UHGV virus genome: UHGV-0140160
Length of the DNA: 12,485 bases
From: a virus
Reading direction: 5' to 3' (one strand)
Below the pieces are notes generated by a model. That model saw only the letters and a list, made by a program, of their open reading frames with translations, had not been told where the DNA came from and did not search any database. Each line of letters begins with the position of its first letter. The stretch's first letter is position 1. Below are positions 9,325-12,065 of the stretch, one piece after another. The position numbers and the translations under genes are program-made.

Positions 9325-10146
9325 TTAATAATGGTTAGCCATCCATTCAGATCTAATTGATGGGATAAACTCTCTATTGAGAAATGGGGCGTACAGCGTG
9401 GTGGTCACGTCTGCACCCTCCTTAGCGTTTTTGCAGCGTTGTGGCGGTAGGATCAGGCGGCTTGTGCCTCGTTCAATAGCCATTTTCAAGCCGTGGCGAA
9501 GGTCTTTCTGCATGAGCTGAATGCGAGCCACCAGAGGCGTAAACTCGGTTTCCAGTGCCATGTTCTCAATGATATCGAATCGTCTGTTTGCAGCTTGTGT
9601 GAAGTCTTCTGGATCGTCGTTCAGAGATGTACACAAGGCCAACTCAGCTATACGGAGACGAGCAACCTCAGCACTGTACTCTGGAGTTTTCATATCAGGC
9701 AAAGTGGCGCGCATACGCTCAAGCAATTCAGCGCCTTTCCCTATTAATGGTTTAAGCGTCCACTCGGTTGGTACTCCGTTTATTGGGACCATAGTTTTAA
9801 TAAACGGCGGGACAGTCAGGATTTCTACCGTTTCGGCAAGGTCTGAAAGGTTAATATCTGCATGATGAACGCTTCCACAGTGACCACACTCATATGAGTA
9901 AGTCATGACGGCATCAGGCCTGGAATTAACAAAGATCCACCAAAGCGCGGTTCTGCGATCCTGAACCGTCCAGTTTGAGCTGTCGTTAATTTCGCCGTCT
10001 TGCATAGCGTTGAGGTATTCTGTTGTGGTTGCCTCGTCTTCTGCCGGATTGATGTCTGAATATTTCAGGGCATCTTTCACAGTAGGTGCATGAAACTGAA
10101 TTTCTATTTCAGGCTGTGAAGGCAATGGGAATTTGGGAATGTTCAA
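9325..10146 (-). CDS. Hypothetical protein, 273 aa; first gene of the tail operon (tail assembly or structural role inferred from position only)
   Basis: TTG start at 10146-10144 preceded by a strong GGAGG 5 nt upstream; 54-nt gap to the giant gene. Single CxxC (YECGHCGS); no family recognised. Confidence 0.6.
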   Translation of the reverse strand: MNIPKFPLPSQPEIEIQFHAPTVKDALKYSDINPAEDEATTTEYLNAMQDGEINDSSNWTVQDRRTALWWIFVNSRPDAVMTYSYECGHCGSVHHADINLSDLAETVEILTVPPFIKTMVPINGVPTEWTLKPLIGKGAELLERMRATLPDMKTPEYSAEVARLRIAELALCTSLNDDPEDFTQAANRRFDIIENMALETEFTPLVARIQLMQKDLRHGLKMAIERGTSRLILPPQRCKNAKEGADVTTTLYAPFLNREFIPSIRSEWMANHY

Positions 10147-10217
10147 GGATTCCTCCAGAAAAGTCGGTACTCGTTTGGCTGGAGGATAGGGAGTGTGTGA
10201 TTTTGACTTTAACCTAT

Positions 10218-10226
10218 TTATCCACA
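10218..10226. promoter_or_regulatory. DnaA box (TTATCCACA, perfect consensus) at the edge of the plasmid origin
   Basis: Exact 9-mer ttatccaca seen at 10218-10226, immediately followed by the GATC cluster and iterons. No second perfect box found nearby. Confidence 0.6.
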
Positions 10227-10230
10227 GGGT

Positions 10231-10289
10231 AGATCAAAACAAAAAGATCAAATGGAGATCAAAACAAGATCAAATAAAGAATAAGGATC
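10231..10289. repeat. Cluster of five GATC (Dam/SeqA) sites in AGATCAAA-type short repeats; AT-rich origin unwinding region
   Basis: GATC at 10232, 10246, 10257, 10268 and 10286 within 58 bp, four of them as AGATCAAA. Five GATC-containing heptamers next to DnaA boxes and iterons are, as I recall, the defining layout of the P1 oriR. Confidence 0.65.
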
Positions 10290-10329
10290 GCGGCAGCCCT
10301 TTATTTTCGGGCTTCTTAGCCCATCGCGC

Positions 10330-10434
10330 TCAACGCTAGCGGGTAAATCATCAACGCTAGCGGGTAAATCATCAACGCCAGCGGGTAAATCATCAACGCT
10401 AGCGGGTAGAAAAGATCAACGCTAGCGGGTATCC
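10330..10434 (+). repeat. Origin iteron array (incC-like): five direct ~21-bp iterons, consensus aTCAACGCTAGCGGGTAAAtc
   Basis: Copies start at 10330, 10351, 10372, 10393 and 10415, so four of five are exactly 21 bp apart (two helical turns). One copy has CCA in place of CTA. The array ends about 35 bp before the repA start. Confidence 0.85.
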
Positions 10435-10469
10435 TGCATGAATTACTAACATATTCTAAGGTGCGTGGA

Positions 10470-11354
10470 ATGGAGCCAGAAATCAGCAACTTAGCTTTAA
10501 CGATTACAGAAGTTGATAAAACTTCCGGTGAAGTTATCCACTTGTTACCGAATTCAAAGCAAAGCATTCAGCCCAAATCGTTGCTTAGGCTGGGGGTGTT
10601 TGTTCCAACCGTAAAGGATGGAACTGATCCTATGAAGAAGGGGCATTCTGTTGATGCCACACAAGAGCTTTGTCGGTTATCAACGCTGGCGGGTGAAGGA
10701 TATGAAAGCGTTAGCATCTATGGACCTCGCCTTGATATGGATACTGACTTTAAGGTTTGGCTGGGTATTGTTGATGCACTAACTCATAAGCACCTGGATA
10801 AAAATGGAACTGTCAGGCTGAATTTTGTTGATTTTGCGGCTAGTTGCGGCCTTGCCACCAAGCGAGTTGATTCTAAATTGAAAAAACGTTTTGGGGATTC
10901 TCTGACCAGAATTCAACGAACTAGTTTTCAATTTGTTAAACCATCAACGGTAGCGGGTAAGAAGATAAAAATAAACATGAGTTTGGTTTCCACATCGTTC
11001 TATGACGAGGGCACGGATGAGGTGATCATTCGTCCTAACCCTGACTTGAATACGCTTTATCAGGTTGATGGAAAAACACGGTTATACCTGAAAGTGCTAA
11101 AGACCCTGGCCCGTAAAGAATCAGCACAAGCGCTTTATCTTTATCTTGTTGAACTTCCTGATAATTTCTACAAGATAGGTTTTGACCGATTGAGGGATCG
11201 CCTACAGCTTACATCCCATAAGGGCGCTCAAAATGCAACCATAAAGAAAGCCTTGGCCCAGTTGGAAGAGGCTGGATTTTTAAAGTATTCCATTGAGAAG
11301 GTACGCGGTGATTTTGTGTTGAATATCATTAGCAGGGAAAGGAAGATCGCTTAA
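10470..11354 (+). CDS. repA: Plasmid replication initiator RepA (P1 RepA family, iteron-binding)
   Basis: ATG 10470 with AAGGTG 6 nt upstream (the ORF track starts at in-frame GTG 10461; either is possible). Translation contains LLRLGVFVPT and GPRLDMDTDFKVWLGIV, which match my recollection of P1 RepA (LMRLGVFVP, GPRLDMDTDFKTWIGVI). Flanked on both sides by iterons. Confidence 0.85.
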   Translation: MEPEISNLALTITEVDKTSGEVIHLLPNSKQSIQPKSLLRLGVFVPTVKDGTDPMKKGHSVDATQELCRLSTLAGEGYESVSIYGPRLDMDTDFKVWLGIVDALTHKHLDKNGTVRLNFVDFAASCGLATKRVDSKLKKRFGDSLTRIQRTSFQFVKPSTVAGKKIKINMSLVSTSFYDEGTDEVIIRPNPDLNTLYQVDGKTRLYLKVLKTLARKESAQALYLYLVELPDNFYKIGFDRLRDRLQLTSHKGAQNATIKKALAQLEEAGFLKYSIEKVRGDFVLNIISRERKIA

Positions 11355-11360
11355 GGTATT

Positions 11361-11486
11361 TTTACCCGCTAGCGTTGATTTACGCTTAATTTGTATTCTC
11401 TCTCGCCCGCTAGCGTTGATTTCATGTGTGCTGACGGGGTTCCCTCCAGCACACATAATTTTGTTGGGATCAACGCTGGAGGGCAA
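11361..11486. repeat. Downstream iteron control region (incA-like): two inverted copies of the origin iteron, one P1-type iteron core inside a palindrome, one direct hybrid iteron
   Basis: Inverted copies tacccgctagcgttgatt (11363-11380, perfect) and cccgctagcgttgatt (about 11404-11421). Palindrome atgtgtgctg-N13-cagcacacat at 11424-11457 whose right arm ccctccagcacacat is the reverse complement of ATGTGTGCTGGAGGG (P1 iteron core as I remember it). Direct hybrid gatcaacgctggagggcaa at 11468-11486. Confidence 0.7.
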
Positions 11487-11511
11487 TTTTCACCCTCCTT
11501 TCATATTGTGT
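11480..11511 (+). terminator. Possible intrinsic terminator / hairpin after the repA control region
   Basis: GGAGGG-caattttca-CCCTCC stem-loop followed by TTTCATATT. Stem is only 6 bp and the U-tract is interrupted; overlaps the hybrid iteron. Confidence 0.3.
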
Positions 11512-11523
11512 TAGAAAATTTAT

Positions 11524-11551
11524 TTGAATTTTCTAATGTGTTTTGTAGAAT
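11524..11551 (+). promoter_or_regulatory. Sigma70-like promoter candidate (TTGAAT-16-TAGAAT) for the immunity-I-like transcript
   Basis: -35 TTGAAT 11524-11529, 16-nt spacer, -10 TAGAAT 11546-11551. Sequence-based only. Confidence 0.4.
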
Positions 11552-11572
11552 CAAAAACCTAACAATTTGATG

Positions 11573-11601
11573 TTGATCTTCCATGTATTCAGGCTTATAT
11601 T
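11573..11601 (+). promoter_or_regulatory. Second tandem sigma70-like promoter candidate (TTGATC-17-TATATT)
   Basis: -35 TTGATC 11573-11578, 17-nt spacer, -10 TATATT 11596-11601; predicted start near 11608, upstream of the first antisense target pair. Confidence 0.4.
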
Positions 11602-11734
11602 CATGCCGTCGTAGCAAATTCTGCGACCGGGTTTAGCAGCCTGAATACGAATGCGGACAACCGCACATTTCCGATATTGCGGTATTTTTGTGTCCGTAAA
11701 ACCACGTTACGCCCGAATTATGGTGGGGCGTGAT

Positions 11735-11800
11735 GGGGAGGCTTCGGCCTGCTGGTTTCATTCGTGCCAGTCTGCTAACCCCGTCACGTCCTGCCACCCG
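11735..11800 (+). ncRNA. Candidate c4-like antisense immunity RNA (boundaries approximate)
   Basis: Region between two copies of the same target pair. It carries cattcgt (11759-11765), presented in the loop of a CUGG/CCAG hairpin, and ctgctaa (11772-11778). These are complementary to acgaatg and ttagcag, which occur together both upstream (11633-11639 and 11647-11653) and downstream (11802-11808 and 11832-11838, the latter abutting the icd SD GAGG 11838-11841). An AGGC-UUCG-GCCU tetraloop hairpin sits at 11738-11749. Confidence 0.4.
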
Positions 11801-11849
11801 TTTAGCAGCGGGTGCGCAGGTTGTTAAACCTACGAATGAGGCCGTAACT

Positions 11850-12065
11850 ATGGTTAATGCCAATCCTTGCTCTCGCCCGGAATTTATCTGGCGCTTTTAT
11901 TCCTGCACAAAACACACCTATATCAGCGTAATGGCAGCTACTGAGGCTGAAGCACGTTCATTTCTTCCTACAGATCCGTGCATTTTTGCGGCTCGCTTTA
12001 AACTCGATGCTCTGGACGTTTTGACCTACTGGAACCGCCCGATGAACTGCGTGGAGGTGCATTAA
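11850..12065 (+). CDS. icd: Icd-like host cell-division inhibitor, 71 aa
   Basis: ATG 11850 with GAGG 8 nt upstream. Translation MVNANPCSRPEFIWRFYSCTKHTYISVMAATEAEARSFLPTDPCIFAARF fits the Icd-like pattern I recall (F.W.F ... E.EAR ... SFAAR). The track ORF 11730-12065 is the same frame with an implausible 5' extension across the RNA region. Confidence 0.7.
   Translation: MVNANPCSRPEFIWRFYSCTKHTYISVMAATEAEARSFLPTDPCIFAARFKLDALDVLTYWNRPMNCVEVH

Follow-up and report, generated by a model that had tools for sequence, protein, structure and literature searches.

The plasmid replicon of the virus genome UHGV-0140160 very probably reached its present place by cassette replacement, an unrelated replicon of the P1 oriR type having been exchanged for the D6-type replicon at a fixed slot in a D6-lineage phage-plasmid backbone. 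We analysed a stretch of 12,485 nucleotides (nt) of this genome, referred to as the window, and in it the interval 9325-12065. This interval comprises pmgB on the minus strand, an intergenic region of 324 base pairs (bp), repA on the plus strand, and the start of an immunity-I locus. D6 gene identities and gene order were taken from the GenBank annotation (MF356679), and sister contigs were compared over loci of approximately 20 kilobases (kb; 10-kb flanks).

The window aligned with phage D6 at 86% DNA identity from S through pmgB (1092-10203), and D6-like plasmids of Escherichia coli and E. marmotae reached up to 94%. The tail gene synteny S-R-16-bplA-pmgA-sit-pmgB, by which D6-like elements are recognized, is present. 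In D6, pmgB (D6_41) and the plasmid rep gene (D6_42) are transcribed divergently, and tub and pmgC lie beyond rep. A D6-type replicon is found at the pmgB slot in approximately 110 PLSDB plasmids, and the D6-like plasmids CP055626 and NZ_CP127300 display the order rep, icd, ant, tub. Judged by these identities and gene orders, the backbone belongs to a D6-lineage (P1g2-type) phage-plasmid and is not of P1 type; by the same comparison the position of rep between pmgB and tub is the usual order of the family and no novel rearrangement. Homologues of ParA, ParB, and StbA were found neither in the window, where the initial annotation had already noted the lack of par genes, nor in the 20-kb sister loci. 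The D6 partition genes (StbA/StbB and a ParA-like open reading frame, ORF) are situated approximately 12 kb away from rep, so the absence of parAB beside rep is normal for the D6 family.

In the alignments, DNA similarity to all D6-type elements ends at 10203 and restarts at approximately 11406. The cassette breakpoints fall between 10203 and 10204 and at approximately 11380-11405. The segment from 10204 to approximately 11405 matched none of 50,697 phage records, and none of 5,426 complete RefSeq E. coli genomes contained a close counterpart; its best match in PLSDB reached 77%. The variant is absent from INPHARED and PLSDB as well as from the complete E. coli genomes. The replaced part is unrelated at the protein level too: no similarity was detectable between the RepA of the window and D6 Rep (BLASTP, E = 0.88 to 2.9). 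The same replicon, from 10218 to approximately 11379, was present in the unrelated backbones L014, L015, and L017 and on ordinary plasmids, and by this distribution it is a portable module.

A RepA of 294 amino acids (aa) that is 99% identical to that of the window (P0001) was encoded on 17 contigs, and five of the 17 had a readable context. Five draft assemblies contained the same junctions: GCA_014713515.1 (90.6-kb contig), GCA_902839265.1 (90.4 kb), GCA_039751495.1, and two SRA assemblies. These sister contigs are 94-96% identical to the window and carry the order pmgB, repA, icd, ant, tub, pmgC, bplB ... 23. The genes that follow ant (tub, pmgC, bplB, and gene 23) are 83-90% identical to D6, and homologues of genes 22 and 23 are found in the flanks. 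A tub homologue, for which the initial annotation had proposed a search, is located after ant in these sister contigs.

A third replicon occupies the slot between pmgB and tub in NZ_CP085065 (L018, 15004-16700), whose backbone is near-identical to that of the window, and in CP042620; only two PLSDB records carried it at an identity of at least 95%. NZ_CP085065 equals the window through the late promoter, a 14-bp filler, the DnaA box, and the first GATC, after which the third replicon begins. The RepA of this replicon shares 85% identity with p0111 RepA' and 43% with the RepA of the window; its iterons are TTGACTATGTGCGAT. Relics of D6-type iterons are located downstream of the array of NZ_CP085065 itself. 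Because a third replicon type sits in this slot, and because D6 keeps relics of a window-type array (see below), replacement of the replicon appears to be a repeated event, with three replicon types in near-identical backbones.

Structure of the replicon and iteron relics

The following features were assigned to the replicon:

10204-10217, no strand: junction filler TGACTTTAACCTAT, delimited by alignments
10218-10226, plus strand: DnaA box TTATCCACA, a perfect consensus that aligns with the DnaA box of P1 oriR
10232-10289, no strand: A+T-rich region with five GATC (Dam) sites at 10232, 10246, 10257, 10268, and 10286, matching the five Dam sites of P1 oriR
10290-10328, no strand: G+C-richer spacer that ends in ATCGCG, as in P1 oriR
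10329-10431, plus strand: five direct origin iterons ATCAACGCTAGCGGGTA, spaced 21-23 bp, the incC analogue
10470-11354, plus strand: repA, 294 aa, Rep_3 family, branch of P1 RepA, RepFIB, p0111, and SSU5
11363-11485, no strand: downstream control array of mixed inverted iterons, the incA analogue
11363-11379 and 11404-11420, minus strand: two inverted window-type iterons
11424-11456, no strand: inverted pair of P1-type iterons; one exact P1-type core ATGTGTGCTGGAGGGAA is present in the array
11469-11485, plus strand: hybrid iteron ATCAACGCTGGAGGGCA

The origin of the window is collinear with the annotated P1 oriR, element by element: the DnaA box, GGnTAGATC, five GATC sites, the spacer, and ATCGCG ahead of the first iteron. 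The GATC cluster at 10232-10289 is the densest in the window (Poisson P of approximately 4e-6 per 65 bp). The origin iterons, none with more than one mismatch, were the sole tandem repeat reported in the window by Tandem Repeats Finder (period 21, 4.8 copies, 90% matches). Homology to L014 and L015 begins at 10218, which is the left end of the shared replicon module. In the alignments the 14-bp filler was shared with NZ_CP085065 alone, the plasmid with the third replicon type; neither the D6-type elements nor the other backbones that hold this replicon contained it.

The repA ORF spans 10461-11354, and initiation at GTG would give a product of 297 aa. An exact-sequence look-up of this 297-aa product returned no record and a 294-aa protein with 99% identity is on record, so the true start is most likely the ATG at 10470. 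RepA scored 39.1 bits against Pfam Rep3_N (PF01051; cut-off 22.4). It is 38.9% identical to P1 RepA (E = 4e-58), 42% to p0111 RepA' (JL22), and 44% to SSU5 RepA. The closest Rep on a complete plasmid was that of Leclercia adecarboxylata pM17-63 (NZ_CP102376), with 89% identity at the amino acid and 77% at the DNA level. Among PDB sequences searched with phmmer, none matched RepA at E <= 0.01. With a RepA only 42% identical to RepA', the replicon is by this measure outside the p0111 group; it is likewise placed outside IncY by origin iterons that differ at 7 of 17 positions and by the 38.9% identity of its RepA. Two further iterons are situated inside the repA coding sequence, at 10679-10695 (ATCAACGCTGGCGGGTG) and 10943-10959. 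The former is conserved in position in every relative examined (L014, L015, and L017), and the latter was limited to the clade of the window itself.

In the downstream array, the two inverted P1-type iterons form a hairpin (-29.3 kcal/mol, z = -4.15) with a U-run behind it and may terminate repA transcription. Window-type and P1-type repeats have the 3' half GCTrGnGGG in common. We considered whether the P1-type iterons at 11424-11456 had been gained from P1 by recombination. This was rejected, as relatives of the replicon in unrelated backbones carry such repeats natively: L015 (10888-11174) and the Leclercia plasmid L017 (9138-9402) both interleave window-type (ATCAACGCTrGCGGGTA) and P1-type (ATGTGTGCTGGAGGGAA) repeats.

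The window contained no D6-type iterons. Downstream of the D6-type rep, D6, CP055626, and NZ_CP127300 each carry one window-type iteron (TACCCGCTATCGTTGA) and an inverted P1-type pair. In D6 this relic has 55 bp and corresponds to 11406-11460 of the window; as a stretch of 87 bp it is present in 102 PLSDB plasmids. The D6-type rep region itself is at least 99% identical in 98 of the 110 plasmids. Since D6-type elements keep a window-type iteron relic, the junction between the window-type replicon and the immunity-I locus is, by this record, older than the present configuration of D6.

The relics also permit a more far-reaching proposal, namely that the gap between pmgB and tub is a dedicated replicon-exchange site and that the relic iterons are functional, either by separating rep from the immunity promoters, as an insulator or terminator, or as decoys that titrate the RepA made by competing phage-plasmids of the P1 or window type. 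If true, a decoy relic would be a built-in incompatibility weapon. We regard this proposal as unlikely.

Several points weigh against replacement of a D6-type replicon by a working replicon of the window type. That the window replicon is the working and the sole plasmid replicon of the element is a reading of its sequence. A generic scan for sigma-70 promoters and terminators over the replicon performed no better than shuffled sequences (4 promoters vs. 3.2 expected), and the repA promoter was not located by it; this promoter is probably within or directly after the origin iterons. The downstream iterons number two to four, vs. nine in P1 incA, and copy control may differ. The strong conservation of the relics may reflect no more than a recent spread of D6-type elements. 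Finally, the relics alone are compatible with either direction of exchange: the window type may be ancestral in this backbone or acquired, and a fragment with both the relic and the immunity-I locus may have been transferred.

Putative late promoter of pmgB and alternative explanations

The left flank of the cassette consists of two features:

9325-10146, minus strand: pmgB, identified by synteny with D6_41, first gene of the late tail operon pmgB-sit-pmgA-bplA-16
10183-10203, minus strand: D6-family late-promoter motif of pmgB, with AAATCACACACT, CCC, and a -10-like TATCCT

The start codon of pmgB is TTG, with GGAGG ahead of it. PmgB is 99% identical to its homologue in NZ_CP104667, 90% to that of D6, and 41% to that of P1. 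A motif common to the upstream regions of pmgB and R, AAATCACA[C/A]ACT, 3 nt, [T/C]AT[C/A]CT, has its second copy in the window upstream of R (2596-2616, minus strand). A scan of the complete D6 genome returned 10 matches vs. 0.88 expected from shuffled sequences. All 10 were correctly oriented and located 40-70 bp upstream of late genes: lysozyme, mat, gene 7, upfC, 23 (capsid), pmgB, R, lydA (holin), ddrB, and prt (portal). We infer from this distribution that the motif acts as a late promoter. The unrelated backbone L014 has a near-identical copy of 22 bp upstream of an operon on its minus strand. No site in the window matched the late-promoter consensus of P1 (AAGTGACTT, 4 nt, TAnnAT). The upstream edge of the promoter coincides with the junction of backbone and cassette at 10203/10204.

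The initial annotation had expected the tail-operon promoter in or next to the origin, and this motif, 14 bp from the DnaA box, bears it out. It is conceivable that late transcription from the pmgB promoter activates or interferes with firing of oriR and thereby links replication with late expression. Divergent transcription helps to open other origins, and the geometry would permit it here: the motif ends at 10203, the DnaA box starts at 10218, and the promoter points away from the origin. The spacing is, however, no conserved design, as approximately 95 bp separate the same promoter from the DnaA box in D6-type elements; the tight spacing in the window is therefore a by-product of the swap. 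Moreover, lytic replication in the P1 family runs, according to annotation, on repL/oriL and not on oriR. We consider such a coupling quite improbable.

Little credence is given to a one-off rearrangement of a P1-type backbone, in which oriR-repA came to lie between the tail operon and the immunity-I region through relocation or insertion. This was the direction taken by the initial annotation, which had described an origin with a divergent repA between the first gene of the tail operon and an immunity-I-like region, and had contrasted this order with the map of P1. All of these features were found at or near the positions it gave, and its account of the P1 map is correct. P1 (AF234172) carries, in this sequence, sit, pmgB, tub, pmgC, LPsit (a late promoter), simCBA, and c4-icd-ant-kilA-repL, and oriR-repA-incA adjoins parAB approximately 13 kb away. 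The P1 order thus does differ from that of the window, and the RepA of the window is of the P1 family. Nevertheless, the backbone is of D6 type, with a PmgB that is 90-99% identical to D6-like homologues and 41% identical to that of P1. The flanks are conserved up to sharp junctions, as fits replacement better than insertion. The replicon did not come from P1's own oriR either, with a RepA of 39% identity and different iterons. Synteny with P1 and D6, the comparison that the initial annotation itself had suggested, revealed that D6 and the approximately 110 plasmids carry a rep gene in this very slot, in divergent orientation to pmgB, an order that it had named in advance as speaking against its proposal. 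Because close relatives, D6 among them, show the same order, insertion into a rearranged backbone fails as a description. The backbone is mosaic as had been proposed, by virtue of its swapped replicon, and no new insertion or rearrangement is needed.

Alternatively, the window replicon could be a decaying passenger or relic, with another replicon elsewhere maintaining the element. Relics of replicons do persist in the slot between pmgB and tub. The repA ORF is, however, intact and 99% conserved across the 17 contigs, none of the five origin iterons has more than a single mismatch, and the DnaA box is a perfect one. Neither the window nor the 20-kb sister loci yielded a D6-type Rep, and the pmgB slot holds the only annotated plasmid rep gene of the D6 family. 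A decaying passenger is accordingly a very improbable reading. An assembly chimera of a D6-like phage-plasmid and an unrelated plasmid, to which the nearest complete-plasmid relative of the replicon in Leclercia might point, is barely credible, given both junctions in five independent assemblies that are 94-96% identical rather than identical copies, two of them with contigs of approximately 90 kb, the size of the whole element.

Immunity-I locus and tail genes

Downstream of the cassette the immunity-I locus comprises the following features:

11505-11601, plus strand: immunity-I control region, consensus matches only
11505, plus strand: C1-operator-like sequence ATTGTGTTAGAAAATTT, in a position corresponding to P1 Oc4
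11524-11551 and 11573-11601, plus strand: two sigma-70-like promoters, in positions corresponding to P1 P2c4 and P1c4
11595-11647, plus strand: c4 a1/b1 target (Rfam RF03163, 54.6 bits, cut-off 46.7)
11716-11801, plus strand: C4 antisense RNA (Rfam RF01695, 71.9 bits, cut-off 45)
11850-12065, plus strand: icd, 71 aa; a 71-aa gene was also called here in the sister contigs
12065-12485, plus strand: 5' part of an antirepressor gene (Pfam ORF6N, 5e-13), which runs out of the window

The matches to C4 and to its a1/b1 target confirm the immunity-I region that the initial annotation had placed at the end of the interval. The 111-aa ORF with which it had closed the interval (11730-12065) was rejected as a gene, since its 5' part overlaps the C4 RNA; icd is the 71-aa ORF instead. 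The c4 a1/b1 element is also overlapped by an isrK match at 11608-11689, whose 46.8 bits fall short of the cut-off of 50. Icd is 88% identical to that of CP055626, 75% to D6_83, and 67% to that of P1.

The antirepressor is 332 aa long in the sister contigs and 95% identical to the L006 product. Its N-terminal 140 aa gave no match to P1 Ant1 and carry an ORF6N domain instead, and it was not classed with P1-type Ant1/Ant2. From residue 111 on it resembles the antirepressors of D6 and CP055626, and the ORF6N N-terminus differs, which suggests a domain swap inside ant. D6 (MF356679) has two icd-antirepressor loci, at 20693-20917 and 74963-75178, one beside repL and the other beside pmgF. Both lie outside the rep slot, in which a 55-bp iteron relic beside tub is all that remains.

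Among the tail genes, sit (5332-9270), a tape-measure/transglycosylase gene, encodes a protein 56% identical in amino acids to D6 Sit, with neighbours at approximately 90%. The length of Sit in close relatives was 1064, 1254, 1255, 1260, 1312, or 1523 aa. No tandem repeat was detected in sit, and AT skew is strongly negative along the gene. The tail-fibre region is mosaic: positions 140-668 are 86-87% identical to gene H of P2-family phages (Wphi, P88, and Xuanwuvirus), and 1092-1562 matches the constant part of the P1/D6 gene S close to the cix site.

Proposed mechanism and comparison with known systems

We propose that in the D6 lineage the tail genes are split in a manner unlike P1: an operon ending in pmgC-tub would stop on one side, and an operon starting with pmgB and sit would begin from its own late promoter on the other. 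The gap between the two tail operons would be the plasmid-replicon slot of the family, sometimes holding the c4-icd-ant module as well, and into this slot a P1-oriR-type iteron replicon would have entered in place of a D6-type one. The steps of replication are derived from the element-by-element collinearity with P1 oriR. RepA monomers would bind the five origin iterons, and RepA together with host DnaA at the adjacent box would open the Dam-methylated A+T-rich region, where theta replication would start. Iteron-bound RepA is predicted to repress its own promoter, and the downstream iterons to hold copy number down through titration and handcuffing. The hairpin with its U-run at the inverted pair could keep repA transcription out of the immunity promoters. 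Partition would presumably be supplied from afar, as in D6. Replicon exchange plausibly frees related phage-plasmids from mutual incompatibility.

If this reading is right, switching of plasmid replicons at a fixed slot, known from earlier reports on the P1 group, also takes place in the D6 group, with at least three types, and iteron scars record earlier occupants of the slot, including in the D6 reference genome. A different replicon should alter which plasmids and phage-plasmids can coexist with the element. A large recent screen detects D6-like elements by 'repL, repB' (bioRxiv 10.1101/2025.09.12.675607); surveillance based on 'repB' would miss the present variant, for which repL, outside the window, would be the only other marker. 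Standard replicon typing may also miss the window-type replicon, because PLSDB gives no MOB-suite replicon cluster for Leclercia pM17-63. The current view of how such replicons work is unchanged. Our literature search, in which the D6 genome paper was not covered, retrieved no report of alternative replicons in D6-like backbones.

D6 and D6-like elements (MF356679, P1g2) share with the window the backbone order S-R-16-bplA-pmgA-sit-pmgB, a rep gene divergent from pmgB, tub-pmgC-bplB beyond the slot, the same late-promoter motif, in some members icd-ant beside rep, and, as would hold for the window, partition genes remote from rep. They differ in the replicon itself. D6 Rep has 251 aa and iterons GGTGTAAGATTTGCCCTCA, unrelated to the 294-aa RepA and the iterons ATCAACGCTAGCGGGTA of the window; the origin layout differs, and D6 has a mere relic of the window-type array. 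The late motif of the D6 family (AAATCACA[A/C]ACT-N3-[T/C]AT..T) is in turn unlike the late-promoter box of P1 (AAGTGACTT).

The P1 oriR-repA-incA replicon (IncY) resembles that of the window in the order of its parts, namely a DnaA box, five GATC sites, a G+C spacer, five iterons spaced approximately 21 bp, repA, and inverted downstream iterons, and in similar 3' halves of the iterons. The 5' halves differ, as does the genomic location, and the window lacks an adjacent parAB. The replicon of Leclercia pM17-63 and its relatives in Klebsiella, Pantoea, and Salmonella plasmids match the window in iteron sequence, five-iteron origin, and mixed downstream array; the Leclercia replicon, however, is uncharacterised and resides in an unrelated 63-kb backbone.

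In groups of phage-plasmids the phage genes are conserved and the plasmid genes are variable (PMC7969092), and in P1-group phage-plasmids IncY and p0111 RepA switch at one slot, a process called frequent (PMC9603915, PMC11165635). The D6 group resembles this system in that distantly related RepA replicons alternate at a fixed slot in conserved phage-plasmid backbones. It differs in that the slot of the P1 group is adjacent to parAB, whereas that of the D6 group is located between pmgB and tub, and in that switching at the D6 slot involves three replicon types, one of them the unrelated D6 type, and leaves iteron relics behind.

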